From: a virus
Taxonomy: Duplodnaviria; Heunggongvirae; Uroviricota; Caudoviricetes
Reading direction: 5' to 3' (one strand)
Virus record (IMG/VR): IMGVR_UViG_2695420596_000006
Span: 1-26,618 of that record
Length of the DNA stretch: 26,618 nt
The notes beneath the pieces are model-generated. The model was not told where the DNA came from, ran no database searches, and saw only the letters and a program-made list of their open reading frames with translations. Shown here piece after piece: positions 5,834-26,618 of the stretch. Each line of letters begins with the position of its first letter. The first letter of the stretch is position 1. Made by a program: the position numbers and the translations under genes.

Positions 5834-5843
5834 AAAAGTCACC

Positions 5844-8397: not shown

Positions 8398-8419
8398 AAT
8401 TCATATCCCCAAAACGCAA

Positions 8420-8644
8420 CTATCGTTCTTTGTTCTTACGGTAACGTTCAAGAGGAGATACATTTTTTCGTATCGTCTCTTTAACCTGCTCTCCCCGTAA
8501 AAACGTCCCATCCTTTAGCGTGAAAAAGTAACTGCCATCGCCCGACAACGACGGATAACAACAGAGCAAATCATCTTCAGGTACTGAATAACTCTCCCCT
8601 CTGTAACGAAACTGATAAACCACTTCACTTTCCGCTGCATACAT
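8420..8644 (-). CDS. Hypothetical phage protein (74 aa)
   Basis: ORF in the early gene string; overlaps an alternative-frame ORF (8515..8841), so which frame is real is unresolved. Confidence 0.35.
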   Translation of the reverse strand: MYAAESEVVYQFRYRGESYSVPEDDLLCCYPSLSGDGSYFFTLKDGTFLRGEQVKETIRKNVSPLERYRKNKER

Positions 8645-8818
8645 TTTGACTTTCTCCGTTTCCTCGTGGTCAATTCAGACAGCAATTCATCTTGTGAATG
8701 ACATGGATGCCAGCGTTTACCATCCTCACCCATGATCCAGCCGTGACCGTAGTGCATTGCCGGACTTTGTTTTACCAGCAGCGATGCAAATGATGGTTCT
8801 TTCGTCAGCATAAGCACC

Positions 8819-9328: not shown

Positions 9329-9360
9329 GGTGCTCCCTTAGAAAGTTCCCATAATTGAAA

Positions 9361-9603
9361 CTACTTACCAACAATGACGCGGAAGTTGGAATGACCGAGG
9401 GATTCACGGACCTGATCAGTTTTGTACATTAGATAACGCAGGCTTACGCGGCCTTTGTTTTTTTCTTTCTTGACCATGTACTTAGCGAGTTGACCATGGT
9501 GAATTTTTTGGTAAACAGACCCGCGGGAAATCCCTTCCCATTCAGCGAATTCAGCAGGCGTAGCCATCTCTTTTGGTACACGAATTGAAATATCTGTGCT
9601 CAT
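9361..9603 (-). CDS. apl: Apl/Cox-type excisionase and transcriptional regulator
   Basis: 80-aa ORF, first gene of the leftward transcript, divergent from the repressor gene; HTH-like segment (ATPAEFAEWEGISRGSVYQKI); position matches 186 apl / P2 cox. Confidence 0.6.
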   Translation of the reverse strand: MSTDISIRVPKEMATPAEFAEWEGISRGSVYQKIHHGQLAKYMVKKEKNKGRVSLRYLMYKTDQVRESLGHSNFRVIVGK

Positions 9604-9705
9604 AGTGCAGTATCTCTTGGTTTAAGCTCGTTTTATGATGTTTAACCCCAACTTCTAAACTCTCATATTAGAAGTTAAATACAAAAATACGATCTCGTTA
9701 TTGGA
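9604..9705. promoter_or_regulatory. Lysis-lysogeny switch region (divergent/face-to-face promoters and operator)
   Basis: About 100-bp AT-rich intergenic region between divergent apl-like and cI-like genes; perfect 9-bp inverted repeat AACTTCTAA-N9-TTAGAAGTT at 9650..9676. Confidence 0.55.
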
Positions 9706-10356
9706 TTGTCAAATGGAGAGTTCATCTTGAAGATTAATACAGGTGCAAATACGGGAGGGAGAGAGACCATCAAAAGGCTGATGACAGCCTATGGTTTCAA
9801 CACTCAGATAGCGTTGGTTGAACACCTCGAAGCATCAAAAAGCACCATGGCAAACAGGATGTTACGTGATAGCTTCCCTGCTGACTGGGTTATTCAATGT
9901 GCCCTTGAAACAGGTATTTCTCTTCTTTGGCTGACAACGGGCCAAGGGGAAATGTATCCTCAAACAGAAGAAAAAAATAAGTTCAAAAACGAGAGTTCAC
10001 CTACAGTTCGCCCCCTTTCAAAAATAGTTATCCCATCAGTAAGGCAGGCAACCATTGAGAACGGAACTCTCGAAGAGATGGGGGATGTTTTCCTTGATCA
10101 GACTTTGATACCCGGAAAAGCCGAATATTGTTTGTACGTCAAAGCTAACGACGGCAATTACATTGTTGATACATCAACAAAACAGCTTAGTAACGGAATT
10201 TGGCTCATAGACATCGACGGTATGAAAAACATCGTCAAAATTGCGCGCATACCTGGAAACAAAATAGTAGTTAACCAAGATGACACGTCATTTGAATGTT
10301 CTGTAGATGATGTGGAAGTCGTAGGACGTGCAGTCAAAGTAATCAAGAACCTCTAA
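9706..10356 (+). CDS. cI: CI-type immunity repressor (186 CI-like)
   Basis: 216-aa ORF beginning at a TTG (an in-frame ATG at 9781 is an alternative start); N-terminal HTH region and position directly upstream of int on the lysogenic strand, as in 186/P2. Confidence 0.7.
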   Translation: MSNGEFILKINTGANTGGRETIKRLMTAYGFNTQIALVEHLEASKSTMANRMLRDSFPADWVIQCALETGISLLWLTTGQGEMYPQTEEKNKFKNESSPTVRPLSKIVIPSVRQATIENGTLEEMGDVFLDQTLIPGKAEYCLYVKANDGNYIVDTSTKQLSNGIWLIDIDGMKNIVKIARIPGNKIVVNQDDTSFECSVDDVEVVGRAVKVIKNL

Positions 10357-10359
10357 CTT

Positions 10360-11379
10360 ATGACCATCAGAAAACAGCCGAACGGAAAATGGTTGTGTGA
10401 GTGCTATCCCAATGGACGCAATGGTAAGCGCGTGCGTAAGCAATTTGCTACCAAAGGCGAAGCTATTGCATTTGAAAGCTTCACAATGGAAGAAGTGAAC
10501 AAAAAACCATGGCTGGGGGAAAAGGAAGATCGGCGACATTTATCAGAATTAATTGAGCTGTGGTATTCCCTGTATGGTCAAACACTCACAGACCCCAAGC
10601 GCCTCATGGCGAAACTTAGTATTATCTGTAATGGTCTAGGCGATCCCATCGCTTCAGAACTGACAGCCGGTGACTTTACGAAATACCGCGAAGCACGGTT
10701 AAAAGGTGAAGTACGAAATGAAGATGGCACGCTTATGTCGCCCGTTAAGCCCCGCACGGTAAACCTTGAACAGCGCAATCTATCATCTGTTTTTGGTACA
10801 CTGAAAAAGCTGGGCCACTGGTCAGCCCCCAACCCGCTTGCCGGGCTGCCAACATTTAAAATTGCTGAGAGTGAATTGGCGTTCCTGACCCCGGAAGAAA
10901 TTAAACGTCTGCTGGATGCCTGTGCTGATTCTCAAAGCTCTAGTCTGCTGACGGTTGCAAAAATATGTCTGGCCACCGGCGCGAGATGGAGTGAAGCCGA
11001 AAACCTGCAGGGCCATCAATTGTCAAAATACCGGATCACCTACACCAAAACTAAAGGCAAGAAAAACCGAACCGTACCGATATCTCAGGAGCTATATGAA
11101 GAACTCCCCAAAAACAGAGGGAAACTATTCACGCCCTGCAGAAAAGCTTTTGAGCGCGCAGTAAAACGAGCCGGTATAGACCTGCCTGAAGGCCAGTGCA
11201 CACACGTGTTGCGCCATACATTCGCCAGTCACTTCATGATGAATGGCGGAAACATATTGGTACTACGCGATATTCTTGGTCACTCTGATATAAAAATGAC
11301 GATGGTTTATGCTCATTTTTCGCCAGATCATTTAGAAGATGCTGTAACAAAAAATCCACTGGCTATGTTGGGATACTGA
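10360..11379 (+). CDS. int: Tyrosine integrase, P2/186 type
   Basis: 339-aa ORF; C-terminal catalytic region HVLRHTFASHFMMNGGNILVLRDILGHSDIKMTMVYAHF contains the R...H-x-x-R...Y tyrosine-recombinase signature; starts 4 nt after the cI stop. Confidence 0.9.
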   Translation: MTIRKQPNGKWLCECYPNGRNGKRVRKQFATKGEAIAFESFTMEEVNKKPWLGEKEDRRHLSELIELWYSLYGQTLTDPKRLMAKLSIICNGLGDPIASELTAGDFTKYREARLKGEVRNEDGTLMSPVKPRTVNLEQRNLSSVFGTLKKLGHWSAPNPLAGLPTFKIAESELAFLTPEEIKRLLDACADSQSSSLLTVAKICLATGARWSEAENLQGHQLSKYRITYTKTKGKKNRTVPISQELYEELPKNRGKLFTPCRKAFERAVKRAGIDLPEGQCTHVLRHTFASHFMMNGGNILVLRDILGHSDIKMTMVYAHFSPDHLEDAVTKNPLAMLGY

Positions 11380-11381
11380 TA

Positions 11382-12413
11382 ATGGAAAAAAGCATTAGCA
11401 CATTTATGTACCTATCCGTTTTATTAGGTTGTATATTCTTATTTATAAAATATCGACTTTATGTTCTCGATCATAGAAGCTTGTTCCAACAACCCTTGTT
11501 CTGGGCTGCAATAGGCCTACCTTTATTCACCAGCCTTTACTTTGGTTCTTTTGTCTGGATAGATAAAATACACTCTTTTAGTCTTACAAGTCACGGTTAT
11601 GAGAGATTTTTAGATATCTCGAAATTACCATTACTCATCCTTGCATCTGCAGTACCTTTAGTTTCAATAGTAAACAACCTACACAGAACCAAACAAACAG
11701 AAAAACAGATCTCAGAGGCAGAAAGGAAAAACAGGGTAGATTTATATTACAACCACATGAAATTTCATCTTGATTTATATAAAAAAATCGAAGGAAAAAG
11801 AATAGGCAGCTACTACCCGGTTCAGGAAGCTCAAGCTGAAGCAATCTACCAACATTTTATAAAACATCCACAAGAACTATATAGAAAAGCATACCCACAA
11901 TCTACGCCTGATGATTCTCAACAATTAGATATTAATGAGCAATTTGTTATTGATTTACACAAATGTTGGGTAGAAATCAACGCAAGACTCAAGCAATTAT
12001 CCGAGAGTGAAAATCAAATACATCCTACAGAGGAACTTTGCACAACAAAGATGAGAATATTTGTAGGCGTTATGATTATTTATGAAAAAACTTGTAAACT
12101 GTTGTGTTTAGGTGGATTTCATTATAAAAAGTCATTTGTAATAAATGATAGTTATAATAAATACCAAGTTTATTCACCATTTTATGATTTTGGCACTCTG
12201 TACGAATCACTGCAATCCTTAGAAGAGATAACCTACGCCTTCTTGGATACTTGCAGAAATGAAGTGGTAAACTTGTACTTCCCTATAGAAGATAAAATTT
12301 TGATATATGGTGAAGGGATTCTAGAGAATTGGTTCAAGTATTCTCAGTTCTTGATCACTATAGCTTATCAACCCGCCAAGATGTCTCGCTTACCCCAGCT
12401 GAGACGCGATTGA
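11382..12413 (+). CDS. Hypothetical membrane-anchored protein (343 aa), moron gene between int and att
   Basis: ATG 2 nt after the int stop (TGA-TA-ATG); three hydrophobic segments in the first ~100 residues then a ~240-residue soluble domain with no motif assigned; visibly more AT-rich than neighbouring phage genes. Confidence 0.65.
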   Translation: MEKSISTFMYLSVLLGCIFLFIKYRLYVLDHRSLFQQPLFWAAIGLPLFTSLYFGSFVWIDKIHSFSLTSHGYERFLDISKLPLLILASAVPLVSIVNNLHRTKQTEKQISEAERKNRVDLYYNHMKFHLDLYKKIEGKRIGSYYPVQEAQAEAIYQHFIKHPQELYRKAYPQSTPDDSQQLDINEQFVIDLHKCWVEINARLKQLSESENQIHPTEELCTTKMRIFVGVMIIYEKTCKLLCLGGFHYKKSFVINDSYNKYQVYSPFYDFGTLYESLQSLEEITYAFLDTCRNEVVNLYFPIEDKILIYGEGILENWFKYSQFLITIAYQPAKMSRLPQLRRD

Positions 12414-12529
12414 TGATGGCGACATTTTGGCGGCAGAGCTTTAAAAACAGATAAAACTGTCAAACACCACATAACACTAACGTATTGTTTTTAAACATAA
12501 ATCATTATTTTTTCTGTAGTAAAAATGGT

Positions 12530-12574
12530 ATGTAGGAATTTCGGACGCGGGTTCAACTCCCGCCAGCTCCACCA
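12530..12574 (+). repeat. 45-bp ssrA 3'-end core (att site copy 2)
   Basis: Exact repeat of 1016..1060; the preceding bases diverge from ssrA. Confidence 0.9.
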
Positions 12575-12608
12575 ATTTTTGATATATTGAAGTTCAGTGA
12601 AGTCTATC

Positions 12609-12643
12609 AAGCCCGCATGGAACCAGCCTTGCGGGCTTTTTTA
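12609..12643 (+). terminator. Rho-independent terminator downstream of the second ssrA-end copy
   Basis: AAGCCCGCA-loop-TGCGGGCTT hairpin followed by TTTTTTACG. Confidence 0.7.
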
Positions 12644-12740
12644 CGTCTATAGTAGTCTACCGAGAATTGCTAGAATCTACTCGTTATGGCACCCTTTTTG
12701 GGACCCAACACAAAGGGTCCAAAACATGAGGGTCCCAAAC

Positions 12741-13970
12741 ATGGCAAAAATCGCTAAGAAGCTCACTGACACTGAAATCAAAAGCACCAAACCTGCCGAG
12801 AAAGAGGTTAACCTTTTTGACGGCGATGGTTTGCTCCTGCGAATCGCCCCCTTAGCGAAGGGAGGAAAGAAAAATTGGTATTTCAGATATGCAGTGCCTG
12901 TGACCAAAAAGCGAACTAAGGTGAGCTTAGGAACCTATCCTCACCTTACACTTGCGAAGGCACGAGCTTTACGTGATGAGTACTTGTCGTTGCTTGCAAA
13001 TGGTATAGACCCACAAGTTCATAACACCCACAAAGCCAATGCCCTTAAGGATGCAACGGAACATACATTTCAAGCAGTAGCCAAGAAGTGGCTTGATGAG
13101 AAAGTCAAAACGTCAGGCATCTCCCAGGATCATGCTAACGACATCTGGCGAAGCCTAGAGAGAAATATCTTTCCAACGTTGGGTGATACCCCCATTAAGG
13201 AGATTCGCCCTAAAATGCTTAAACAGCATTTAGACCCCATAGAAAAACGAGGTGTCCTTGAAACACTTCGCCGCGTCATATCCCGCCTGAATGAAATTTT
13301 CCGCTATGCAGCAACAGAAGAACTCATAGAATTCAATCCGGCTGACAACCTGGGGCAACGGTTCAGCAAGCCAAAAAAACAGAATATGCCAGCATTACCC
13401 CCTTCCGAACTCCCCCGCTTCCTGGTTGCTCTAAACAATGCTTCTATCCGTTTAGAAACAAGGCTACTGATTGAGTGGCAACTTCTCACATGGGTTCGCC
13501 CTGGTGAAGCTGTTCGCACAAGATGGTCAGATATTGATATAGAAACCAGCATGTGGAACATCCCGGCGGAGTTTATGAAAATGAAGAAGCCTCACAAAGT
13601 TCCACTGAGCAAAGAATCTTTGCGAGTCTTGGATTCAATGAAAGCCATCAGCGGGCATAGAGAGTGGGTTTTTCCCAGTATCAAAGCTCCACTCAATCAC
13701 ATGCATGAACAAACAGCTAATGCGGCTATAATCCGTATGGGCTTCGGAGGTGAGCTTGTAGCTCATGGTATGCGATCAATCGCTAGAACGGCGGCTGAGG
13801 AGTGTGGCAAGTTTAGAACTGATGTCTTAGAAGCCGCCCTTGCCCACTCGAAAAAAGATGAAATAATTGCAGCCTACAATCGTGCAGAGTATCTCACAGA
13901 ACGTGTGGTTCTCATGCAATGGTGGAGTGACTATGTTTCGTCTCAAAAATACAAAGTTATTGCCGCATAA
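12741..13970 (+). CDS. int: Tyrosine integrase, P4/CP4-57 type
   Basis: Start at MAKIAKKLTDTEIKSTKP (ORF track begins further upstream at 12597, inside the terminator); N-terminal arm-binding pattern and C-terminal H-x-x-R ... Y region (HGMRSIARTAAEE ... IIAAYNRAEYLTER). Confidence 0.88.
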   Translation: MAKIAKKLTDTEIKSTKPAEKEVNLFDGDGLLLRIAPLAKGGKKNWYFRYAVPVTKKRTKVSLGTYPHLTLAKARALRDEYLSLLANGIDPQVHNTHKANALKDATEHTFQAVAKKWLDEKVKTSGISQDHANDIWRSLERNIFPTLGDTPIKEIRPKMLKQHLDPIEKRGVLETLRRVISRLNEIFRYAATEELIEFNPADNLGQRFSKPKKQNMPALPPSELPRFLVALNNASIRLETRLLIEWQLLTWVRPGEAVRTRWSDIDIETSMWNIPAEFMKMKKPHKVPLSKESLRVLDSMKAISGHREWVFPSIKAPLNHMHEQTANAAIIRMGFGGELVAHGMRSIARTAAEECGKFRTDVLEAALAHSKKDEIIAAYNRAEYLTERVVLMQWWSDYVSSQKYKVIAA

Positions 13971-14252
13971 CTCTTCCATGATGGGTTAACTATCTTGATT
14001 TATTTGAAGAATTAATGATCACACCATTAACCTATGTGGACTAAGCATAGCCATTTACAAATGGGTACCTTGAGGCCAAATAACGAAAGCTGTCGGTCAT
14101 ATCAGCTAAATAATTCACATCTCTTCTCGATTATCATACACCTCGAAGAACTACCAAATTCGCTCTAATCAATGATAAAACAGTTGAATTCGGTTAAAAT
14201 TTGATCAATTTTATCCTCTACATTGTATTGAATCATCCATGAGGTTTTGTGC

Positions 14253-15809
14253 ATGGCTAGCGGAAATGAAAAAAATCATAGAGTTAGGGTCGCACAGTAC
14301 TTGAGGATGTCTACCGACCATCAGCAATATTCTTTACATAATCAGTCTGAATATATCAAAGATTATGCTGAAAAGAACAATATGGAAATCGCTTATACCT
14401 ACGATGATGCAGGTAAGAGCGGAGTCAGTATCGTAGGCAGGCATTCTTTGCAGCAGTTACTTAGCGATGTAGAACAAAAGAAAATAGATATACAGGCTGT
14501 ATTATTTTATGATGTGAGCCGTTTTGGTCGTTTTCAAAATAGTGATGAAGCTGCATATTATTCCTTTCTATTTGAAAGAAATGGTGTAGATCTTATATAT
14601 TGTTCCGAACCTATACCCACTAAAGATTTCCCTTTAGAGTCCTCTGTTATACTGAATATAAAAAGATCAAGTGCTGCATATCACAGCAGGAATCTATCTG
14701 AAAAGGTATTTATAGGGCAAGTAAATTTAATAAAGCTTGGTTATCATCAAGGCGGTATGGCTGGTTATGGGCTGAGACGTCTTTTAGTAGACGAAAATGG
14801 CATAGCTAAAGAAATATTGAATTTCCGCAAAAGAAAGAGTATTCAAACAGATAGGGTAATATTAATTCCGGGACCAAAAAATGAAATAAAAATTGTAAAT
14901 AGAATCTATGATCTCTTTATAGATAGTAACGTCCCAGAATTCATTATTGCTGAGAGATTAAATGAACAGAGCATACCTGCAGAAAATGGAACATCATGGA
15001 CTCGTGCAAAAATACATCAAATTTTGACAAATGAAAAATATATTGGAAACAACATATATAACAAAACCTCATCTAAACTAAAAAGTAAGCTTGTAAAAAA
15101 CCCCAAACATGAATGGATTAGATGTGACAAGGCATATAAACCAATTATTTCAAAGAAAAAATATAATAAAGCTCAAGAAATAATTCAGCTCCGATCCATT
15201 CATTTGACTAATGAAGATCTATTAGAAAAGCTAAAAGAAAAATTAGAATCTAATGGAAAACTATCAGGCTTTATCATTGATGAAGATGATACAGGCCCTT
15301 CATCTTCTGTTTATAGAACCCGATTTGGTGGTCTTTTAAGAGCATATACTTTGATTGGTTATAAGCCAGAACATGATTACAGCTATCTCCAAATAAATGA
15401 AGCACTAAGATCATTTTACTCAGAGATAATTGAGGATTTTAAGGGCGAAATATTAAAAAGTAACTGTCATATAGACGAGTATAAATATTACCCAATGCTT
15501 TACATCAATGATGAGTTTTTAATTTCCGTCCTTGTTACTAAATGCATACATATGAAATCAGGTAAACTTAGATGGAAAGTCCGGTTTGATAACTCACAGA
15601 AAGCAGACATAACAATTGTTATACGAATGAATTCACAAAATATTTCACCTCTTGATTTTTATATCATACCAAAGATTGAAAACGAATATAGTAAAATGTG
15701 TATGATGGAAACAAACAACATTCGGTTAGATCTCTATAGATTTGATAATCTTGATAAATTTCTACAAATTATTACTCGCATGAAAGTGAGGGAACTATAT
15801 GCTGCCTGA
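14253..15809 (+). CDS. Large serine recombinase (resolvase/invertase catalytic domain plus recombinase domain)
   Basis: Start at ATG with GAGG 8 nt upstream; N-terminal VAQYLRMSTDHQQ...GKSG...VLFYDVSRFGRF is the serine-recombinase catalytic pattern; 518 aa; strongly AT-rich. Confidence 0.8.
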   Translation: MASGNEKNHRVRVAQYLRMSTDHQQYSLHNQSEYIKDYAEKNNMEIAYTYDDAGKSGVSIVGRHSLQQLLSDVEQKKIDIQAVLFYDVSRFGRFQNSDEAAYYSFLFERNGVDLIYCSEPIPTKDFPLESSVILNIKRSSAAYHSRNLSEKVFIGQVNLIKLGYHQGGMAGYGLRRLLVDENGIAKEILNFRKRKSIQTDRVILIPGPKNEIKIVNRIYDLFIDSNVPEFIIAERLNEQSIPAENGTSWTRAKIHQILTNEKYIGNNIYNKTSSKLKSKLVKNPKHEWIRCDKAYKPIISKKKYNKAQEIIQLRSIHLTNEDLLEKLKEKLESNGKLSGFIIDEDDTGPSSSVYRTRFGGLLRAYTLIGYKPEHDYSYLQINEALRSFYSEIIEDFKGEILKSNCHIDEYKYYPMLYINDEFLISVLVTKCIHMKSGKLRWKVRFDNSQKADITIVIRMNSQNISPLDFYIIPKIENEYSKMCMMETNNIRLDLYRFDNLDKFLQIITRMKVRELYAA

Positions 15810-16695
15810 AAAAAATGAATTCCCAATAATTCAAATTGAGATTGCAAAAATAAAATTTCTTAACCCACGAACAAGAAATAAGGTAGTGCATGAAGAAATA
15901 AAGGAAAGCATAAAAAAAAGAGGATTAAGCAAGCCTATAAGCGTAAGAGCTATTGATGAAGACGATTTCAAATATGCTTTAATTTGTGGTCAAGGGAGAA
16001 TAGAGGCTCTTGTTGCATTAGGTGAAACTATTATTCCAGCAATTATAAGAGATGTATCAGAAGAAGATGCTTACGTTATGAGTTTAGTTGAAAACATTGC
16101 AAGGAGAAGACCACGTTCTAATGAGTTATTACAGGTGATTAAAGACATGAAAATCAGAGGACTTTCAGACTCCGAAATAAGTGAGATTACTGGATATTCA
16201 TCGAACTGGGTGAGCAGTATTAATATGCTTCTTGATAAGGGAGAGCATAAACTTCTCTCAGCAGTCGAACGGGGTAATTTGCCTCTGTATCTCGCAGTGC
16301 AATTTGCAAGATGTGAAACTGAGGAAGCACAAGATATTCTTACCGAAGCATATGATAAAAAATTAATAAAAAGTCGGGACATTATAAAGATAAAATACAT
16401 TCTAAATCAAAGAACAGTTGGAAATAAAGGTGCAAAAGCAGCCGGATTTTATTATCACAAACCATCAAAAAGGATGACTGCAGAGGAGTTGATTGAGCTT
16501 TATGAAAATAGTATCGCTGAACATAAATCTGTTTATAACAACTCGAAATTTATAAAAACCAATCTACTAATAATAAATGAGATTTTTAACATCATAATGA
16601 TGAATAAAAGCTTTCAAAATATACTTGAACAAGAGAATCTTTCAGAACTACCATCTCAGATATTAAACCCAGTAAACAAAGAGGTATCAAAATGA
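15799..16695 (+). CDS. ParB/Srx-like N-terminal domain protein (298 aa)
   Basis: Overlaps the recombinase stop by 11 nt; N-terminal IQIEIAKIKFLNPRTRN...SIKKRGLSKPISVRAID...YALICGQGRIEALVALGETIIPAIIRDVSEEDAYVMSLVENIARR matches the ParB N-terminal domain pattern including the G-x-x-R box. Confidence 0.75.
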   Translation: MLPEKNEFPIIQIEIAKIKFLNPRTRNKVVHEEIKESIKKRGLSKPISVRAIDEDDFKYALICGQGRIEALVALGETIIPAIIRDVSEEDAYVMSLVENIARRRPRSNELLQVIKDMKIRGLSDSEISEITGYSSNWVSSINMLLDKGEHKLLSAVERGNLPLYLAVQFARCETEEAQDILTEAYDKKLIKSRDIIKIKYILNQRTVGNKGAKAAGFYYHKPSKRMTAEELIELYENSIAEHKSVYNNSKFIKTNLLIINEIFNIIMMNKSFQNILEQENLSELPSQILNPVNKEVSK

Positions 16696-17588
16696 TTCAG
16701 ATACGTTTTGGCAAAAATTTTATTTACCTGGAAACTAATAAGTTAATTCCATCTAAGGAATTATTAGAAAACGTAAAGCGAAGCCATAAATATCATCAAA
16801 TAGTTACCTCTATCGAAAGCTTGGGTATTATTGAACCAATAATAGTATTCTATGACAAAGATAAAGATGTCACTAAGATACTTGATGGCCATTTAAGGGT
16901 TGAGGCTTTAAAAGACTTAGATATAGAAAAAGCTCCATGTATACTTTCGAGCATAGATGATGCTTTCACTCCTAACAAACAAGTGAATCATATAAATGTA
17001 GTTGAAGAACATAGAATGATAATTAAGTCTCTGGCAAAAGTATCAATTGAAAAACTTAGTGCTGCTTTGGGCATATCTGTTGATGCCATAAAAGATAAAG
17101 CTAATGTGATGAACGGCATAGATCCAAGTGTAATTGCGAAACTTTCTGATAAACCTATACCTAAGGCTACATTTGACGTTTTGAGGAAAATGAAGCCAAT
17201 TCGTCAAATTGAAGCAGTCGGTACAATGATTAATTTTGATAATTATAGTAAAAAATTTGCAATGAGCATCTTGGATGCAACACCGTCATCGATGATAGTA
17301 AATAAAGGGAAAAACACTCCCTATAAAAAGGACATAAAAAAAACCATACTTCGTCTGGAACAAGAAATGGCAACAACTTCGGAAGAAACGAAAAAACTTC
17401 AAACCGAGTATGGTTCAGATATGTTGAAATTCGTTATAATCCAGTCATATATTAATAAATTACTTGGCAACTCTAAAGTTCTTCATTGGTTCTTAGAAAA
17501 CGAGGTTGATTATCTTAATGAGTTAAAAAGAATTTCTAGAATAAATTCTTTGGATGATAAGACTCTTACTGAAAACAGCCAGTCATAG
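16692..17588 (+). CDS. Second ParB/Srx-like domain protein (298 aa)
   Basis: Start overlaps the previous stop (ATGA); N-terminal ...HKYHQIVTSIESLGIIEPIIVFYDKDKDVTKILDGHLRVEALKDL... resembles a ParB-like domain. Confidence 0.65.
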   Translation: MIQIRFGKNFIYLETNKLIPSKELLENVKRSHKYHQIVTSIESLGIIEPIIVFYDKDKDVTKILDGHLRVEALKDLDIEKAPCILSSIDDAFTPNKQVNHINVVEEHRMIIKSLAKVSIEKLSAALGISVDAIKDKANVMNGIDPSVIAKLSDKPIPKATFDVLRKMKPIRQIEAVGTMINFDNYSKKFAMSILDATPSSMIVNKGKNTPYKKDIKKTILRLEQEMATTSEETKKLQTEYGSDMLKFVIIQSYINKLLGNSKVLHWFLENEVDYLNELKRISRINSLDDKTLTENSQS

Positions 17589-18640: not shown

Positions 18641-19546
18641 TTATTTAGATGCTAAAATAGTATTTTTATTGAATTTTTCATCAGCATCTGTAAGCTTTTT
18701 CATTATTAAAGCAGGGGCTATATCCTGAAGCTCCGTAGATTTTATGAAAAAATAATTACAAAGGTAAATTATATTATTAAGATTAATTGGTATATCAATA
18801 TTATAATCTAACATTAACGATAACAAACGATCTCTGTCAATTCTATAAAACTTTTTACCAAGCTCTTTCTCATTAATTATTGAAATTATCTTTTCATCAA
18901 GCTTATCGTCCATTCTCAATCTTAATTTATTTCTTAGCATAGCGGACCATGCGCTTGACTTATAATTTCTATATGCTAAATCCTCAAATAACTTCATTAT
19001 TCCCCAATCAGATGTTTCCAAAGAGGCGTAAATTCCATTCAGCGCGCGACTAAGGTCATTATGCTCAACCCAATCCTCTTTGCACTTATAGCGTAGATCA
19101 TGCTCAACTTCATGCCATCCTTCAGATAAAATAGTTCTAAATTGGACTTCAAAAGTAGTATCAATATAAGAATATTTCTTTAATAAGACACTATCATTTG
19201 ATAATACTTCTGGTAACTTAAAGACGTAATTGCATCGAGTTGCCGCAAAGAGATTAGCCGTGGTTTCGTCTACGGTTTTAGATTCAATTTCGAATAATTT
19301 CTCCAGTGTTTTTTGAGCAATAAATAAATCATCAGGAAAATATAATATTATCCTAACCCCAAATAAGTCTTGAATTTTTTTACCATCCTCTGAGTATTTA
19401 TTAGGCTCTTTTTCATATTTCTTAATTATTGAGCTTTCTGATTTTGTCCTCGAAAAAAAACGATAAAGTAATCCAATACGATTAAGTTCATCTTCTATAT
19501 CTTTTTGCAAACTTTGAATAATTCGCAATTCATTCCCGTTATACAT
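18641..19546 (-). CDS. RelA/SpoT-homologue (RSH) nucleotidyltransferase-fold protein, toxSAS-like (301 aa)
   Basis: Start ATG overlaps the upstream stop (ATGA); contains DLFGVRIILYFPDD and EVQFRTILSEGWHEVEHDLRYK, matching the synthetase-domain motifs D-x-x-G-x-R and E-x-Q-x-R-T...W-x-E...H-x-x-x-Y-K; C-terminal ~140 residues unassigned. Confidence 0.8.
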   Translation of the reverse strand: MYNGNELRIIQSLQKDIEDELNRIGLLYRFFSRTKSESSIIKKYEKEPNKYSEDGKKIQDLFGVRIILYFPDDLFIAQKTLEKLFEIESKTVDETTANLFAATRCNYVFKLPEVLSNDSVLLKKYSYIDTTFEVQFRTILSEGWHEVEHDLRYKCKEDWVEHNDLSRALNGIYASLETSDWGIMKLFEDLAYRNYKSSAWSAMLRNKLRLRMDDKLDEKIISIINEKELGKKFYRIDRDRLLSLMLDYNIDIPINLNNIIYLCNYFFIKSTELQDIAPALIMKKLTDADEKFNKNTILASK

Positions 19547-21651
19547 CAGAAATTCCTCCCAAGAATTGCTTTAATCTCTGATATTCTTGCCATGTTAAGT
19601 TCAAGGAACGAACGCTTGTCTGGCGTAAGTAAAAGACCGTCTTTCCTCAATTTATCTAAAGAATGGAGTATTTCACTTAACTGAAATTGATTGTTGTTAG
19701 AACATAAGCCTTTTATAGGCCGATGCTTATGATAGCTAACACTCCCTCTGGGACAGAACTTCTCTAAGATGTAAATATCACAATCTGTAATATCGTGATC
19801 ATTTTCACTGTTTATCTCGACAGATTTTTTATTAATAGCATCATTGTCACATTCACATCCCAAAAAATAAATATCTTCCCTACCACTTAATTCGTTAAAA
19901 CTACAATCTATAAAAGAACAGTTCACGAATGTAACGTTTTTATAATTACCACAGGTAAATATGCTGCTAAAAAACGAACAATCAACAAAGATAGTATCAT
20001 GTATTATATTTATATCGCCTAAAGAAAGTTTTGATATAGACAATTGCTCAACACTATCATTTTTTAAATCTAATGGAACTTTTCCTATAAGCAAATGACT
20101 ATAAAGGATTTTATCATTACCTGACATAAAATATAAAGCAAACTCTAAGCTATGCCAAAGTAATTCTTTTTCATCATCGATCCTCGGCATATAAGATTGC
20201 ACTGCTGGTTCTATAAAACGTTTATCACCAATCCATTCATTTGACTTATCATTAATAATATTTTCAGAAACAAAATTACCAAGAACAAATTCATTAACAA
20301 ATCCAATACCTTGGTTTTCTGAGCCTGACCGATCTAATAGAGCATGCGATGCTAATTTATTAACTAATTCGTCAGTAGTTGGTCTTTCATCTACAGTATA
20401 AAGCTTTCTTGTAGCCTCCAAGAGTTGTTGATTCTTTTCAGTTATGACTAACGATATATACTCTCTAGACTCAGATGTGTAGTTACCCTCGACCATGTCG
20501 TCAGCTATTATTTTTAGTATAGTATATTGATCTTCAATAGACATTAATAAATCTTGTCTTTTTCTTTCTCGCTCAAGCATTGAATCAAAATACTTCCTCA
20601 CTATAGTTGTTGGGTCGCTTATAACTTTATTAAAGTCGGTGTCGTCGATGCATCTTAGAAATGATAGCAGTACAGGGTTTGATAATTTGTTAAGAGGAAA
20701 TCCTGTCGATGAAATTTCATCTAAACGTTGACCTGGAAGCCAGTCTTCAATTTGTGGTTCATGAATTCTTATTCTTATCACATCAAAATCTTCTTGATGT
20801 GATGCTATCCACTGATGGAATTCATCTCCGTCAAATATAGCTGTTCTTCGAGTTGTCAAAACCACTTTTGCACTATCAGTTAGAAGCTCACTTATTGTTT
20901 CCAGCATTGGCTCTGTTTTTTCATAATTATTTTCAATTCCGTTTGTACTTTCATGCAATAGTTCATCAAACCCGTCAAGTATAACTGGTACATTTCCTGC
21001 TCTTATTTCATTCCTTACTAAGGCTGAGCTTAACAAAGGAAAACTTCTATCAATTTCATCTAATAGTACATACCTGAATATTTTTGCTTGCCTATTCCTT
21101 GATAGTTCTGAAAATAATGGTATTTTCCCTATATTGTTAACTATAATCTCCCTCAATAATTCATACGCCGTGCAAGTCTTTCCAAAACCGGCTGCAGCCT
21201 CAATCAAAAACAGAATTGGACGCCTATGTTGTATTCTCTCTAATATTTCCGTAACAACATTAGCTTCGCCAATAACACCATTTAAGTAATATTTTGAATT
21301 TATGTAGGAATAAGTTGCAGTAGGTGAGTGAATTTTTACAATTGAATCTGTGAAAGTATTATAATCTTTAATCAACCTTTCTTTAGTTGAATCGACGCTA
21401 AAGAAGCCATTAAATAATTCCTTATGTGCTTCTTCATAAGACTGATATTTTTTAATTTGACATGCATAACCTAACTGCCTATATTCTTCAAAGGTTTGAT
21501 TTACATTAACCTCATTATTTAGTGGAAGTATGTCCGCGTTATGGTAGTGCCCTGTTTTAATAGAATATACAGCAATACTTTCGTTACCTGTATTTTCTTC
21601 AGTAAAACCAAACCTTTTATATATCTCTGTAAGTTTGCTTTTTCGTAACAT
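19546..21651 (-). CDS. NACHT-type STAND NTPase with C-terminal pentapeptide-like repeats (about 701 aa)
   Basis: Start at ATG preceded by AGGAGG (ORF track adds 3 codons from a GTG); Walker A LIEAAAGFGKT and Walker B VPVILDGFDELLHE (h-h-h-h-D-G-h-D-E, NACHT-typical); C-terminal FVDCS/FFSSI/FTCGN/YKNVT/FVNCS/FIDCS/FNELS five-residue periodicity; N-terminal ~130 aa unassigned. Confidence 0.8.
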   Translation of the reverse strand: MLRKSKLTEIYKRFGFTEENTGNESIAVYSIKTGHYHNADILPLNNEVNVNQTFEEYRQLGYACQIKKYQSYEEAHKELFNGFFSVDSTKERLIKDYNTFTDSIVKIHSPTATYSYINSKYYLNGVIGEANVVTEILERIQHRRPILFLIEAAAGFGKTCTAYELLREIIVNNIGKIPLFSELSRNRQAKIFRYVLLDEIDRSFPLLSSALVRNEIRAGNVPVILDGFDELLHESTNGIENNYEKTEPMLETISELLTDSAKVVLTTRRTAIFDGDEFHQWIASHQEDFDVIRIRIHEPQIEDWLPGQRLDEISSTGFPLNKLSNPVLLSFLRCIDDTDFNKVISDPTTIVRKYFDSMLERERKRQDLLMSIEDQYTILKIIADDMVEGNYTSESREYISLVITEKNQQLLEATRKLYTVDERPTTDELVNKLASHALLDRSGSENQGIGFVNEFVLGNFVSENIINDKSNEWIGDKRFIEPAVQSYMPRIDDEKELLWHSLEFALYFMSGNDKILYSHLLIGKVPLDLKNDSVEQLSISKLSLGDINIIHDTIFVDCSFFSSIFTCGNYKNVTFVNCSFIDCSFNELSGREDIYFLGCECDNDAINKKSVEINSENDHDITDCDIYILEKFCPRGSVSYHKHRPIKGLCSNNNQFQLSEILHSLDKLRKDGLLLTPDKRSFLELNMARISEIKAILGRNF

Positions 21652-21770
21652 TAAACTCACCTCCTGATATTTTTCGCAATGATGCTATAGTCGCTGTATG
21701 AACTTTTAATATAATATTACAAAAACCATCTACATAGCTACCGCCTAAGCAATAATAGCTATGTAGAGAT
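21652..21770 (-). promoter_or_regulatory. Putative promoter/operator of the NACHT-RSH operon
   Basis: AT-rich upstream region; perfect 11-bp inverted repeat CTACATAGCTA-N15-TAGCTATGTAG at 21730..21766. Confidence 0.35.
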
Positions 21771-22526
21771 TATCTGTAAGAGAACAGTTCAACGGTTACG
21801 TGCACGTTATGACATCGTTCTAACTTCATGGGGTGCTCAGTAACAGAACTTTTAAGCCATTCTTGCTCGCTGAACATGCAGTCATACCTATCACAAGCAG
21901 TACAACCATTACTTAGCAGACCTCTGCTTCTTGTTCCAAAAGGAACGTAAACCAGATGTTAGAGTTAACAAAACTGAAAGCCACTGCCCCCCAAATCTCC
22001 AAGTCAAACATTAGAGACTTTAAGTGAGCTCAGCCCAGATTATGCATTCTAATCAATTTCCAAATAATCAATCGGGCTAAGCCGTGGTGGTCATCGCGCC
22101 AATCCCCATAATGAAGGATACATCTTGGCTGTATCATCTTCCTTACAGCTGCGTTTCAACATGTGCTGAACAACACTCAAGTTAATGTAAATGAGCCAGT
22201 GAATACAACATCTGTTTCAAATCACTTTGAAGTTTTCTTCACTTAATGTGTACGCCAAAATTATCCGGATAAACATAGAGTAACGGTCGACCGGGATTAC
22301 AATCAACCAGTTTCATCTCTAGTAAGCGATATTCTTATGGCGGCAGCGGAATGTTCTGACAACCCCACTGAGGCGGTGCTACAGAATCTTATCGAAGCCA
22401 AACATCAGCTACGTTTCCCTAGATGTTAAAATCAGTAGTCGCAGGGCCAATGCTAATGATCCACACATTGACCGTGAAGGGGCCTTTCAGGTGGGTACGA
22501 CTGCATTCCAAGTGACCACCGCACCT

Positions 22527-22763
22527 ATGGAGAAATTGATTTCACACTGTATCAAAATCAAACGCGCAGGCTACAGGCCGGTCATCCTAACTCTTGAAAG
22601 CAAGGTCATTGCAGCACGCCAGCTGGCTGATAACGTTGGTATGTCTGAACTGATAGCCATCCAGGCAGCTGAAACTTTCATTGGTAACAATATTGAAGAG
22701 ATTGCTATTTATGACGGCGATAAAATCCGTGAGAGTCTCGCAAGATTGATACATCTCTTATGA
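22527..22763 (+). CDS. Hypothetical small protein, possibly a gene remnant (start uncertain; frame opens at 22440)
   Basis: Only open frame in about 1 kb; followed by a hairpin plus T-run; no motif assigned. Confidence 0.3.
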   Translation: MEKLISHCIKIKRAGYRPVILTLESKVIAARQLADNVGMSELIAIQAAETFIGNNIEEIAIYDGDKIRESLARLIHLL

Positions 22764-22846: not shown

Positions 22847-23039
22847 CACCATACCTAAGCCCCAAAACTAAAGCACTACGGCTTGATTGGGCTGGCGTAA
22901 GTCTGCACACCGAGCCTTTTGCACTATAAATTTCTCAGAATATATAACCAATATGTCAGTAAAGGTTTAAAGTGAATGATTCGTTTTGGCAGGATACTTA
23001 CGATTATCACAACACTATCACATATTGTGTCTCACACAC

Positions 23040-23344
23040 AAAGTTGAAAATCAAAACAGAAGTAAAAGATATAATATTCCCCTGCTAAAATACGATTCAC
23101 TTCAAACATTTAATATTAATGGGATATATTTCCCCCTAAGCAATGGGGAAAAACGCCCATCAATCAACCATGAAATAAAAATAGCACTTTTTGCAAACTA
23201 TGAATTTATTTATATAAAACATCACATTAAATTAGTTTATTCAAAAGAAAACGCTTGCTTATTTTTTATTATTAAAAATAAATTTGATTTTTATTTATTT
23301 GATAATATACATTCATTTCATCAAAATAATAAAGGAGAATAAAA
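23040..23344 (+). promoter_or_regulatory. Extremely AT-rich upstream region of the ankyrin operon
   Basis: About 300 bp dominated by A/T runs ending in the RBS AAAGGAGAA; the ORF predicted here (22986..23342) is low-complexity. Confidence 0.35.
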
Positions 23345-23785
23345 ATGAAAAAACAAAACTATTCAACCCTGACAAGTTACCTATCTAAAACAAAAAAGAA
23401 TACAGATCTCTACCGTCTGTATAACCCTCACTTTTCAATATTCTGTAAAAATAGCATTGAAGATCATGTTTTTTATCTTAATTATTTTTCCAGACATATG
23501 GTGACGGAAAGAAATATTCTGACCATATTTGCTATCCATACCTTTTTCTCTTATAGCATGGAAAAAAAAGACACCATAAAAGCTTTTACCCGTTTTCTTA
23601 AAGAGGAGAATCACGATACTTTCTATCAGTCATTTTCTTTTCGTGGCTGCAATATCATTTACACAAACAAAAAAGGCGAAGTGAAAGAGATCTCATGGTT
23701 TTCTTTTTCACGGATCTATGACGAGATCATTAAGATAAAAGAATATGAATACAACAATAATACCTGGCACAAAACGACCGCTTAA
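23345..23785 (+). CDS. Hypothetical protein (146 aa), first gene of ankyrin operon
   Basis: ATG preceded by AAAGGAG; no motif assigned; AT-rich. Confidence 0.6.
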   Translation: MKKQNYSTLTSYLSKTKKNTDLYRLYNPHFSIFCKNSIEDHVFYLNYFSRHMVTERNILTIFAIHTFFSYSMEKKDTIKAFTRFLKEENHDTFYQSFSFRGCNIIYTNKKGEVKEISWFSFSRIYDEIIKIKEYEYNNNTWHKTTA

Positions 23786-23799
23786 AAAGGAGAACGCCC

Positions 23800-24753
23800 A
23801 TGAGTAACTATACAGAAGATAATTTATTTGACAGCAAAACTAAAAAAGACGTCCAGAATTGCATTGCTGCAGGCATTGACATTAACACACTTAATGAACA
23901 CGGTGAAAACGCCCTTTTCGGTTGCGACAGTATCGGGGCTTTAAAAGCCATGATTGAAGCAGGCATAGCGCTGAACCATACAGATTGTTATGGTAATAAT
24001 GCCCTGTTTAGCAGAAAAAGCCCACGTGCAGTGAGGCTATTGATAAAGTCAGGTATTAACGTTCACCACAAAAATAATAAAGGCCAGTCCTGTCTTCACT
24101 GGCAGCGCTACGCCATAGATTGTGCGGAACTCCTCATAAACGCGGGCATTGATATCCACAGCACAGATAACGAAGGACAAACGCTTCTTTATGACCTCCT
24201 CGATCATGACGTCTTTGATTACTGGGTAAATAAAGGGTGTGACATAAACCACAGAGATTATGGTGGCAAAGCGGTGCTGGATCTTCCGACTGACAACGAG
24301 TGGTGGATATATGATTTCAGTATTAATGCCCTCAAACGCCATGTTGATAGAATAGACAGCACGCCAGTATTATTTAAACATGTTTCAACTGAGGCTTTGC
24401 CTCTAATTGCTTTGCTTCATGAAAAAGGGCGTAATATCCTTATCGCTGAACACTGTTCCTTCGCATTATATGTCAAAAACATGAAGTACTTCTTTACCTC
24501 ACTGAAAAAATATACCGATATCAGTCATGTTCAGTTTTATAATTGTTATCATGATAAACATATTGGTATCTACACCGGCATAGAAAGTGTGAAATGGTTT
24601 ATTCGAAATGGTATCCGAATGGACGACGATATACTCAGACAGCGTTCTGACTCCGATAAGATTTTTTCTTATATCGCAGCAAGAGAGAAAAAAGACCTGT
24701 TAAAAGAAATGAAGCCAGAGATCCCCCGTTCATCTGTACGAAAAAGACTCTAA
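23800..24753 (+). CDS. Ankyrin-repeat protein (317 aa)
   Basis: ATG preceded by AAGGAG 14 nt after the previous stop; about four ankyrin-like repeats (GENALFGCDSIGALKAMIEAGIALNHTDCYGNNALF...LLIKSGINVHHKNNKGQSCLHW...LLINAGIDIHSTDNEGQTLLYD...); C-terminal ~150 aa unassigned. Confidence 0.75.
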   Translation: MSNYTEDNLFDSKTKKDVQNCIAAGIDINTLNEHGENALFGCDSIGALKAMIEAGIALNHTDCYGNNALFSRKSPRAVRLLIKSGINVHHKNNKGQSCLHWQRYAIDCAELLINAGIDIHSTDNEGQTLLYDLLDHDVFDYWVNKGCDINHRDYGGKAVLDLPTDNEWWIYDFSINALKRHVDRIDSTPVLFKHVSTEALPLIALLHEKGRNILIAEHCSFALYVKNMKYFFTSLKKYTDISHVQFYNCYHDKHIGIYTGIESVKWFIRNGIRMDDDILRQRSDSDKIFSYIAAREKKDLLKEMKPEIPRSSVRKRL

Positions 24754-24827
24754 AACTCTGGAGTAAACAACCCTTTTCTTAGTCTGCAAGGATTCATTTA
24801 ATGACCATTAATCTGATATGTCCTCGT

Positions 24828-24855
24828 GGGTATACTATTTGTCAAATGGTATACC
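24828..24855. promoter_or_regulatory. Candidate oriT-associated inverted repeat upstream of mobC
   Basis: GGTATAC-N13-GTATACC inverted repeat about 100 bp upstream of the MobC-like start. Confidence 0.25.
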
Positions 24856-24954
24856 TTTTTTAATCCAGATAATTAAATTATTTATCCCGTAACAACTTGA
24901 CTTATTCATTTCATCGGTTATCTGTAGTAATAAACATGAAATAAAAGGATAACT

Positions 24955-25362
24955 ATGAACAGTGACATGAGTAATGATGATGATATAACCAGAGTATCAA
25001 AACGCGGTAAATTCCATACTGACAAATTTCCTGAGAATGAAATACGACATCACTGCATCAGTGTCAGATTAAATGAAGAAGAATTAATTATTCTCGACAG
25101 TAAAAGAGGTCAGTATAAAAAAGGAGAATGGCTCAGGATGGCTTCCCTGAATAAACTCCCGCCGGTTCTGCCAGAAATCAATCGTGAAGCATGGATAAAA
25201 CTTGGCAGCCTTTCACAGGATTTAAACTACCTGTTGAGTCATCTCGACAGCAAAAGCCCTGACAGCGAACTGACCCGTACAGAACTCTTCGCCCTGCGCA
25301 GACAAATCAAAACTCTCAGGGATCACCTTATTCCCTCAACATTTCTGGAGTCAGACCCATGA
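24955..25362 (+). CDS. mobC: MobC-type mobilisation accessory protein
   Basis: 135-aa ORF with AAGGA RBS; central SVRLNEEELIILDSKRGQ segment resembles the MobC/MbeC pattern (S-V/I-R-L-T/N-x-E-E); directly upstream of and overlapping a relaxase gene. Confidence 0.65.
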   Translation: MNSDMSNDDDITRVSKRGKFHTDKFPENEIRHHCISVRLNEEELIILDSKRGQYKKGEWLRMASLNKLPPVLPEINREAWIKLGSLSQDLNYLLSHLDSKSPDSELTRTELFALRRQIKTLRDHLIPSTFLESDP

Positions 25363-26618
25363 AAGGCATGCAGAAAATAAAAAGGGGTAAACAATTCACA
25401 GGTGTGGTTATTTATAGCCTGAAGTCAGGTTCTCACCACAAAATCACGCCTTATGTCATCGGTGGCAACATGACGGGTAGCACTGCTGCTGAGCTTATAA
25501 GTGAATTTGAAGGCACCCGACTGCTGCGTCCCGATGTCGCCAAACCTGTCTGGCATAATTCACTTCACCTGCCAAAGGGTGAGAAACTGTCAAACAGACA
25601 GTGGGCAGCATTCGCTGACGATTATATGGCCCGAATGGGCTTCACTGACACCCATCTTCGCTGCTATATCATGCACGATGATCCGGATGGGCAGCATATT
25701 CATATCATTGCAAGTCGTATTAACATGGTCGGTGGAAAACTGTACCTGGGGAAAAATGAAAATCTTATCGGCACACGGATTATCAGTGAGCTGGAGAGAG
25801 TACACGGCCTCACCGAAACTACGGGTGTAACCGGCAGTAGCCGCCAGGATAAAAGGAAGCCTTCCCGTAATGAACTGATGATGGCAGAACGCACAGCAGC
25901 TCCCTGCCCTAAGTCACTGTTGCAGGCCCTGCTCGACAATGCATTAACACACCATCCCGATTTACTAACCTTTGTTCGCTTACTGGAACAGGAAGGAGTG
26001 ACCTGCAAACCCAATATCGCCACTACGGGTAAAATGAGTGGATTTTCATTTCAATACCAGGGTATTGCCTTTAAAGCATCTCAGTTGGGTAAAAAATATG
26101 GCTGGTCTTCCCTGCAAGCACTGATTGATTTTACGCCTGAGCATCTGAGTTTACTGAAAGAAGCCCAGAGGCCAATAGAACCTACAACCGCGCCAGTGCC
26201 AGTGCCAGTGCCAGTGCCAGTGCCAGTGCCAGTGCCAGTGCCAGTGCCAGTGCCAGTGCCATCATGCGAGTCTGAAGAGCAGGCTGCAAACCGGGAAACG
26301 ATTCTGGAGAAAATCCATCAGCTTGAAGAAAAAATTCGTCTGGAAAGACAACAGGAGACAGTGGGTATCATCCAGCTCAGGAGCAATCTGCACAATACAG
26401 CTCGTCAGATACCCCGCCAGCGTCGTCTGTATTCATGGCTTGTATTGCTCGTCCATATTGTGGCACTTCTCAGGCGCAGAGGCATGTCTCTGTTACATGC
26501 CACTGCACATCCTTTCCACCAAATCCTCCACCTACATATTCTGACACCCTGTCATCCCATGACAACAAATACCAATAAAGAACAATCATTTAAAAACAAC
26601 AACCATCCTGCACCATAA
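25359..26618 (+). CDS. mobA: MobA/MobL-family relaxase with internal (PV)11 linker
   Basis: Start overlaps the mobC stop (ATGA); N-terminal relaxase motifs WHNSLHLP and histidine cluster HDDPDGQHIHIIASRIN; in-frame PVPVPV... linker; stop codon is the last triplet of the window. Confidence 0.75.
   Translation: MKGMQKIKRGKQFTGVVIYSLKSGSHHKITPYVIGGNMTGSTAAELISEFEGTRLLRPDVAKPVWHNSLHLPKGEKLSNRQWAAFADDYMARMGFTDTHLRCYIMHDDPDGQHIHIIASRINMVGGKLYLGKNENLIGTRIISELERVHGLTETTGVTGSSRQDKRKPSRNELMMAERTAAPCPKSLLQALLDNALTHHPDLLTFVRLLEQEGVTCKPNIATTGKMSGFSFQYQGIAFKASQLGKKYGWSSLQALIDFTPEHLSLLKEAQRPIEPTTAPVPVPVPVPVPVPVPVPVPVPVPSCESEEQAANRETILEKIHQLEEKIRLERQQETVGIIQLRSNLHNTARQIPRQRRLYSWLVLLVHIVALLRRRGMSLLHATAHPFHQILHLHILTPCHPMTTNTNKEQSFKNNNHPAP
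26193..26261 (+). repeat. Hexanucleotide tandem repeat (CCAGTG) x 11.5 inside the relaxase gene
   Basis: Eleven perfect CCAGTG units plus CCA, in frame, encoding (Pro-Val)11-Pro. Confidence 0.95.

Follow-up and report, generated by a model that had tools for sequence, protein, structure and literature searches.

At positions 23345 to 24753 of the window (the whole stretch of DNA that was analysed, 26,618 nt) we find a compact unit of two genes, one encoding a small protein of 146 amino acids, here called p146, and the other an ankyrin-repeat protein (Table 1). Both ORFs lie exactly at the coordinates given by the original prediction, which had described the unit as a gene for an unknown protein followed by one for an ankyrin-repeat protein. 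That description is borne out: the first product has no known family, and the second is a genuine ankyrin-repeat protein. The gap between the genes is 14 nt, and an AAAGGAG ribosome-binding site, a strong Shine-Dalgarno sequence, stands ahead of the ATG of the ankyrin gene. Both are genuine genes. Both proteins are predicted to be cytoplasmic.

The extremely AT-rich DNA that had been reported upstream of the pair is also present (GC content 0.227 at 23101-23400, vs. 0.407 for the whole window; 0.253 for 22986-23344 and 0.172 for 23165-23344), and the silencing proposed for it, of the H-NS type, is a plausible role. A 118-aa ORF at 22986-23342, which overlaps this DNA, is judged to be spurious, since the sequence upstream of approximately 23165 is not conserved between elements.

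Table 1. Features of the two-gene unit and of the element that carries it, in window coordinates
Feature	Position	Strand	Description
Second, partial tmRNA copy	12398-12574		Directly ahead of tyrosine integrase
Tyrosine integrase	12597-13970		
Conserved AT-rich promoter/5′ region of operon	23165-23344	+	GC 0.17; ~180 bp; from alignments
Box AATAGCACTTTTTG	23180-23193		Once per element
p146 gene	23345-23785	+	146 aa; ATG start
Ankyrin-repeat protein gene	23800-24753	+	317 aa; ATG start
Ankyrin-repeat domain, residues 1-160	23800-24279	+	Five to six repeats of ~30 aa; acidic, pI 5.7
C-terminal alpha/beta domain, residues 161-304	24280-24711	+	Basic; family-specific
Basic C-terminal tail, residues 305-317, and stop codon	24712-24753	+	Ends ...VRKRL; low-confidence
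Intergenic region, ankyrin gene to mobC	24754-24954		Presumptive oriT and mob promoter region
Hairpin GGGTATAC...GTATACC, then T-run	24828-24856	+	Terminator-like; 13 pairs
MobC-type relaxosome accessory protein gene	24955-25362	+	135 aa
Relaxase gene	25359-26618	+	ORF runs to window end

The window begins with smpB, followed by the tmRNA gene (698-1060), and tmRNA was the sole match in an Rfam search of the window. Since a second, partial tmRNA copy precedes the integrase, the region is an array of elements at the tmRNA hotspot, and the p146-ankyrin pair sits in the second of them. This element is an integrative mobilizable element (IME), a genomic island of E. coli. Horizontal acquisition, which had been supposed for the ankyrin gene, is thus upheld, the pair being carried by an IME inserted at the tmRNA gene. 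A 2-kb segment around the pair is 100% identical to E. coli chromosomal DNA, and among 5,426 complete E. coli genomes, 66 carry it; it was found on no plasmid of those genomes, and the PLSDB plasmid collection holds no near-identical match to it. Isolates from food, chickens, a crow, wastewater, and humans are among the carrier strains. In one carrier, NZ_CP025903, the element starts with the integrase, a serine recombinase, and two ParB-like genes; these are followed by a RelA/SpoT-domain gene and a NACHT gene, whose product carries an NA-iREase2 domain, and by a DUF4928 restriction-enzyme remnant, and then by p146, the ankyrin gene, MobC, the relaxase, small ORFs, AlpA, and DUF6387. A P4-type integrase marks one end of the IME, and AlpA and DUF6387 are found toward the opposite end of the conserved block.

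In a species scan with one genome per species, relatives of p146 were found in 15 species, all of them Enterobacteriaceae as far as they carry a genus name (Escherichia, Citrobacter, Enterobacter, Superficieibacter, Pseudocitrobacter, Leclercia, Kluyvera, and Atlantibacter). In 14 out of 15 species-level loci, and in eight further loci, p146 is followed in turn by the ankyrin gene, MobC, and the relaxase. In other loci with this gene order an identical series of small ORFs, and then AlpA and DUF6387, comes next. The cargo upstream of p146, in contrast, varies: NACHT and RelA/SpoT genes in the present element, and elsewhere an ars operon, GmrSD together with HEPN, or AAA ATPases. Because the gene order is constant while the upstream cargo differs, the pair is part of the conserved backbone of this IME family, not of its cargo. 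The two genes are nevertheless separable and do not form an obligate pair. A very common E. coli variant (protein P0088, found in 604 blocks of the collection) has p146 directly before MobC and lacks the ankyrin gene, as do loci L029 and L037-L042, and ankyrin paralogues without p146 are found at loci L005-L008. Lone ankyrin paralogues of 412 aa (approximately three extra repeats) and 291 aa occur in decayed islands beside tmRNA-type integrases. Given this separate occurrence, the genes do not form an obligate toxin-antitoxin or two-component system.

p146 is a basic protein (pI 9.3), and its gene is always the first behind the conserved promoter. It has no signal peptide and no membrane segment, matches nothing in Pfam, NCBIfam, PADLOC, or PHROGs, and has no fold match. 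A p146 profile searched against 1.84 billion representative proteins retrieved only 24 clusters, many of them fragments, and by sequence the protein appears to have no relatives outside its own small family. The more distant homologues (43%-47% identity) are encoded on 15- to 42-kb plasmids of Salmonella, Klebsiella, Citrobacter, Enterobacter, and E. coli. On every plasmid examined, the p146 homologue opens an operon whose last one or two genes are orphan N6 DNA methylases; in some cases one to three ORFs of unknown function intervene. On plasmid pSA20130280.1, a largely co-directional block encodes an LPD7 protein, ArdC (ArdcN plus MPTase-PolyVal), RelE/NadS, an ankyrin protein of 236 aa that is different from that of the IME, the p146 homologue, and the methylases. 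With their ArdC and orphan methylases, these plasmids tie the p146 family to anti-restriction neighborhoods.

The promoter region of approximately 180 bp is conserved across the IME variants and extends to the plasmids whose p146 homologue is 43%-47% identical, in which the boxes AATAGCACTTTTTG and GAAAACGCTTGC are still recognizable. We place the boundary between cargo and backbone at approximately 23165, since conservation in the alignment starts there and the sequences upstream are unrelated between elements. On the downstream side, protein-level conservation also covers the first 28 codons of p146, plasmids included, and third codon positions visibly differ. We considered and rejected a single-stranded DNA promoter of the Frpo/ssi type, a common but dispensable attribute of leading-region genes, since no unusual single-stranded DNA or RNA structure is seen upstream of the operon: The template strand of 23150-23350, folded as DNA, reaches -15.9 kcal/mol (z = 0.30), and the upstream region folded as RNA has z = -0.09, neither of them giving stable structure beyond that of shuffled controls.

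Profile searches confirm the ankyrin repeats in the product of the second gene, with scores above the cutoffs for Ank_2 (36.8 bits, cutoff 27.3), Ank_4 (37.4, cutoff 22.7), and Ank (25.6, cutoff 21.1), and the domain has the stacked helix-turn-helix and loop arrangement of the solenoid fold. Within the repeats, scaffold positions are fixed and variation falls at loop and helix-end positions. The original prediction had recognized no motif in the C-terminal ~150 aa of the protein, and neither do we: Residues ~160-317 have no convincing match among the Pfam, NCBIfam, and PADLOC models, and a profile of this region retrieved no solved structure from the PDB by sequence and no protein outside the family. 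The C-terminal domain is modeled with pLDDT values of 86-95 (AlphaFold2) and ends in a degenerate ankyrin-like helix pair. Its residues C219, K265, I268, and Y291 are invariant, and residues 253-304 are the least variable part. The tail that follows has pLDDT values of 52-65 (AlphaFold2) and a charge of +4.8 over the last 23 residues; its terminal (R/K)(K/R)(R/K)(L/M/I) is a conserved feature of the 315- to 317-aa and 412-aa forms that most 286- to 306-aa paralogues lack.

A mobilization module had been placed directly downstream of the pair, and there we find a MobC homologue and a relaxase. The 135-aa ORF is 41% identical to the annotated MobC of pPSKoxy4_4 (E = 6e-20) and has a weak NikA-like match in Pfam. 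The relaxase, with mobC directly upstream of its gene, matches the Pfam Relaxase family (PF03432, E = 2.5e-22), is annotated in NZ_CP025903 as a 419-aa protein, and is 43%-50% identical to relaxases of small mobilizable plasmids; the sole record with MOB typing among its relatives is MOBP. Its translation contains HDDPDGQHIH, which we take to be the relaxase histidine motif.

Between the end of the ankyrin gene and mobC-relaxase lie 201 nt. By analogy with a related IncQ2-type mobilizable plasmid, which has the same layout upstream of mobC-relaxase, this intergenic region may contain the oriT. Its alignment includes an invariant block at approximately 24896-24935, and TATCTG/T at ~24918 resembles the MOBP nic consensus. 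The pairing of the hairpin at 24828-24856 is preserved by compensatory changes in two other loci (L013 and L016); it is likely to be the terminator of the operon and is also a candidate for an inverted repeat of oriT. In a search for oriT by sequence, comparison by eye with the DNA upstream of mobC in the related IncQ2-type plasmid and in a Pseudomonas plasmid revealed no obvious similarity.

Among 12 orthologous loci, pairwise dN/dS ranges from 0.07 to 0.43 for p146, the ankyrin gene, mobC, and relaxase (gene-wide NG86 estimates, with dS saturated for distant pairs), and we conclude from these ratios that both genes of the pair are maintained by selection. Positive selection at the level of whole genes was considered and rejected, gene-wide dN/dS being <0.5 everywhere. 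The degree of divergence differs greatly among the four genes. Relative to the window, protein identity is 59%-91% for p146 and 40%-92% for the ankyrin protein, compared with 77%-97% for MobC in loci where the ankyrin gene is present. Relative to locus L009, dS reaches 1.84 in p146 and 1.25 in the ankyrin gene, vs. 0.07 in mobC and 0.39 in relaxase. Sliding-window identity places recombination breakpoints inside the ankyrin gene, and identities per segment are mosaic; in L009, for example, identity leaps from approximately 60% to at least 95% near 24580. Both genes are thus under purifying selection as deeply diverged mosaic alleles, considerably older than those of the far more uniform mob genes beside them. 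Since the extra divergence is matched by high dS, we attribute it to the exchange of old alleles, a pattern that other functions could also yield. It fits what would be expected under diversifying or frequency-dependent pressure, and the variable repeat surface would fit a binding surface diversified by such exchange.

Taken together, position and orientation, the plasmid neighborhoods, and the allele pattern make a role in establishment or counter-defence the best-supported reading of the pair, and we give a probability of roughly 40% to its being an early-expressed leading-region module for establishment or anti-defence. The original prediction had offered anti-defence as one of several options, and it is the one that fares best: The pair lies on the side opposite the relaxase and points toward the presumptive oriT, and the p146 family has ArdC and methylase neighbors. 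Against this reading, there is no Frpo-like single-stranded DNA hairpin upstream, neither protein resembles known anti-defence proteins in sequence or fold, and in particular the pair has no sequence or fold homology to ArdA, ArdB/KlcA, ArdC, or Ocr. [quoted passage not shown] 2024). The operon, on the plus strand and pointing at the region upstream of mobC, would follow this orientation rule, given the presumed oriT and a lagging relaxase, and it is by this analogy that the pair may be placed in a leading region. Its end of the island would then probably enter a new cell first, which is why we regard the two genes as candidates for establishment or counter-defence.

A mechanism of the following kind may be envisaged. 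p146 and the ankyrin gene would form a co-transcribed module on the entry side of the IME. Once the IME is excised and mobilized with the aid of a helper plasmid, they would precede all other genes into the recipient, because they adjoin the presumptive oriT on its far side from the relaxase and are transcribed in the direction of this site, and the transferred strand would serve as the template for their early expression. The ankyrin protein would act stoichiometrically, the acidic groove of its five to six repeats binding a host protein, and its basic C-terminal domain would supply a second activity or contact. p146 would be a second inhibitor, or else an autoregulator that gives a burst of expression on entry. 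In this scheme we infer the position of oriT, the early expression, the binding to a host defence protein, and the effect on transfer. A more specific version, which we consider doubtful, is that the ankyrin protein neutralizes a host immune protein by sequestration as the island enters, with the C-terminal domain providing a second function and p146 acting as a partner. The protein would be made at entry or possibly be co-transferred by means of its basic tail, and p146, as a partner with a new fold, would inhibit another defence or time the burst. Our literature searches found no paper that links ankyrin proteins to bacterial counter-defence or anti-restriction, and none on the present proteins by accession.

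The main rival is a role in transfer or its regulation, in which p146 would be a DNA-binding regulator or relaxosome accessory of mob/oriT, or an autoregulator without an effector function, and the ankyrin protein an adaptor between the relaxosome and the coupling protein of the helper. p146 stands directly upstream of MobC in every IME locus, the ankyrin-less variant included, and this invariant adjacency fits a transfer or regulatory role equally well. The small size and basic character of p146 also agree with such a role, as does the joint conservation of its N-terminal 28 residues and the promoter boxes across IMEs and plasmids. The plasmid homologues, however, head methylase operons and are not located beside an annotated relaxase, no HTH or RHH domain is detected in p146, and, contrary to what would be expected of partners of a conserved relaxosome, the p146 and ankyrin alleles show much deeper divergence than the mob genes and recombination independent of them. 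We hold this explanation to be unlikely. An origin as a host-protective system of the island, acting by defence, abortive infection, or exclusion against phages or competing plasmids, would accord with the defence cargo of the element (the NACHT protein with NA-iREase2, the RelA/SpoT-domain protein, and the restriction-enzyme remnant) and with previously described IMEs at the E. coli tmRNA hotspot, which commonly carry defence systems (PMC10121019). Deep allelic diversity is typical of defence genes, too. The ankyrin protein matches the phage-defence candidate PDC-M72A of PADLOC (E = 3e-8), but the match comprises the ankyrin repeats only (profile positions 274-366, 93 out of 392), and no PADLOC model matches p146. 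Considering also that the conserved backbone, not the variable cargo slot, contains the pair, that neither protein has a recognizable enzymatic or effector domain, and that the two genes occur separately, we find a protective function distinctly improbable.

The other options named in the original prediction receive less from the data. In favor of an immunity protein we found nothing. A role of the ankyrin protein as an effector acting on eukaryotic cells appears highly improbable. Ankyrin repeats are typical of secreted effectors, and NCBIfam similarity to Legionella AnkY and AnkH is found, but it is weak, covering only the repeats at 22-25 bits (25.5 for AnkY/LegA9 and 22.4 for AnkH/LegA3) against cutoffs of 600. 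The conserved basic C-terminal tail might conceivably act as a T4SS signal, by comparison with those of VirB/D4 systems; the protein has no signal peptide or membrane segment, however, and the IME no secretion system. The related EARL island ICEKp258.2 does bear TIR and TPR proteins (PMC10763509), but the hosts of the present IME include food, chicken, crow, and wastewater isolates besides human ones, and within the IME family the ankyrin gene is optional. A further possibility outside that prediction, a toxin-antitoxin or addiction pair that stabilizes the island, might be suspected from the tight spacing of a compact two-gene operon with a small first gene on a mobile element. We reject it as scarcely credible: Each gene is found alone, many genomes carrying one without the other, p146 pairs with methylases on plasmids, and no toxin or antitoxin domain is detected. 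A minor share of the probability is assigned to none of the readings named here.

Between E. coli, Salmonella, Klebsiella, Citrobacter, and Enterobacter, IMEs at tmRNA and other hotspots spread cargo for defence and resistance. For the question of how such elements establish themselves in new hosts, the locus offers a compact and testable candidate: two genes behind a single conserved promoter, together with clear natural variants that keep the ankyrin gene, lack it, or have methylases in its place. If the pair acts in counter-defence, two families without known relatives, one of them built on ankyrin repeats, would join the anti-defence repertoire and provide a handle on the spread of islands; if its products are regulators of transfer, they would mark a conserved control point of the island family. 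Should the sequestration version hold, the ankyrin protein would be the first ankyrin-based counter-defence protein of a bacterial conjugative or mobilizable element, and the deep mosaic alleles would record an arms race with host defences.

Among characterized ankyrin proteins, the Bdellovibrio immunity protein Bd3460 and designed DARPins offer structures for comparison, to which identity is only 15%-24%. Unlike these, the present protein adds a C-terminal alpha/beta domain of ~145 residues and a basic tail, both without sequence relatives, and it is predicted to be cytoplasmic and is encoded on an IME. The known anti-restriction proteins ArdA/Ocr, ArdB/KlcA, and ArdC are small, have their genes close to oriT, and through early expression protect the DNA that comes in. 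On plasmids, ArdC lies close to p146 homologues, whereas ArdA and Ocr are acidic DNA mimics and p146 is basic instead.

As a whole, the element resembles the EARL (ROD21-like) islands, such as ICEKp258.2 (PMC10763509). Both have a P4-type integrase at one end and, toward the opposite end, an AlpA-type regulator with a DUF6387 gene behind it, and they share a backbone relaxase, low GC content, and modular recombination. EARL islands differ in inserting at Asn-tRNA genes, in contrast to the tmRNA gene used here (and other sites in some variants), and in carrying a MOBQ relaxase with TraD and pilus genes, whereas the present IME has MobC and a relaxase for which the closest plasmid relative with a MOB type belongs to MOBP. 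The gene table of ICEKp258.2 contains 0 occurrences of an ankyrin protein (PMC10763509).

The closest parallel for the pair is with the leading-region genes of conjugative and mobilizable elements (PMC11541004). The present genes differ from these in belonging to an integrated IME, not a plasmid, and in that no Frpo/ssi-like promoter was found. They share with them a location next to the oriT/relaxase module and on the far side of oriT from the relaxase, the oriT being presumed here, as well as an uncharacterized and fast-diversifying content, and the relatives of p146 are neighbors of ArdC and orphan methylases. The pair is best filed as an uncharacterized backbone module in the class of leading-region genes.

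At the tmRNA hotspot of the window, a full and a partial tmRNA copy mark out a tandem array, in which a P2-like element is followed by the integrative mobilizable element (IME). The slot adjoining the P2-like integrase holds a 343-aa ORF without a Pfam match here, whereas the equivalent slot in NZ_CP025903 holds an anti-phage dCTP deaminase; the prophage cargo at this position is therefore variable.

Features of the tmRNA array, the IME and related plasmid operons
Feature	Locus	Coordinates	Remarks
tmRNA gene	window	698-1060	full
P2-like element	window	about 1184-12413	
343-aa ORF	window	11382-12413	slot adjoining P2-like integrase
tmRNA, second copy	window	12398-12574	partial
IME integrase	window	12597-13970	
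Large serine recombinase, then two paralogous ParB_N/RepB genes	window	14247-17588	just inside IME
NACHT protein (704 aa) and RelA_SpoT-domain protein (301 aa)	window	18641-21660	- strand
90-aa ORF	window	22491-22763	DUF4928 and PADLOC type II restriction enzyme model, C-terminal end only
Invariant block	window	24896-24935	5′ of mobC
Pro-Val repeat run	window	about 26180-26240	within relaxase
Plasmid operons, p146 homologue first	L043	5001-8515	
	L045	5001-7581	
	L019	20307-22578	

The same serine recombinase and two ParB_N/RepB genes also precede the stand-alone 412-aa ankyrin paralogue at another of the compared loci (L005). In the IME cargo slot, the NACHT gene, whose product has an N-terminal NA-iREase2 domain, is directly followed by the RelA_SpoT-domain gene, and the two form a candidate two-gene defence system. 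The NACHT gene has no match among the PADLOC models. The RelA/SpoT gene is intact in the window but broken into fragments in NZ_CP025903. Bordering the cargo region is a decayed restriction gene, the 90-aa ORF, which covers positions 214-301 of 331 in the PADLOC model.

An IME variant in which p146, the 146-aa basic protein, lies directly 5′ of MobC without the ankyrin gene is very common in E. coli (L029, 6001-7200; L037-L042). It adjoins the norR/ygbA region in L037-L041, and its cargo comprises an AAA_15/AAA_21 ATPase and a 281-aa gene. In the plasmid operons headed by a p146 homologue, the orphan N6 methylases are separated from this first gene by as many as three unknown ORFs, of 144, 58 and 254 aa, the longest of which matches DUF6015 weakly. 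These ORFs resemble an array of variable cassettes carrying uncharacterised genes.

Relaxase orthologues vary in length between 399 and 425 aa, which growth and shrinkage of the Pro-Val repeat (PVPVPV...) may explain. Upstream of mobC, all aligned IME variants share the invariant block TTGACTTATT..TCATC.GTTATCTGTAGTAATAAA. Its TATCTG/T resembles the MOBP nic consensus, which makes the block a candidate for the nic region or for a mob promoter.
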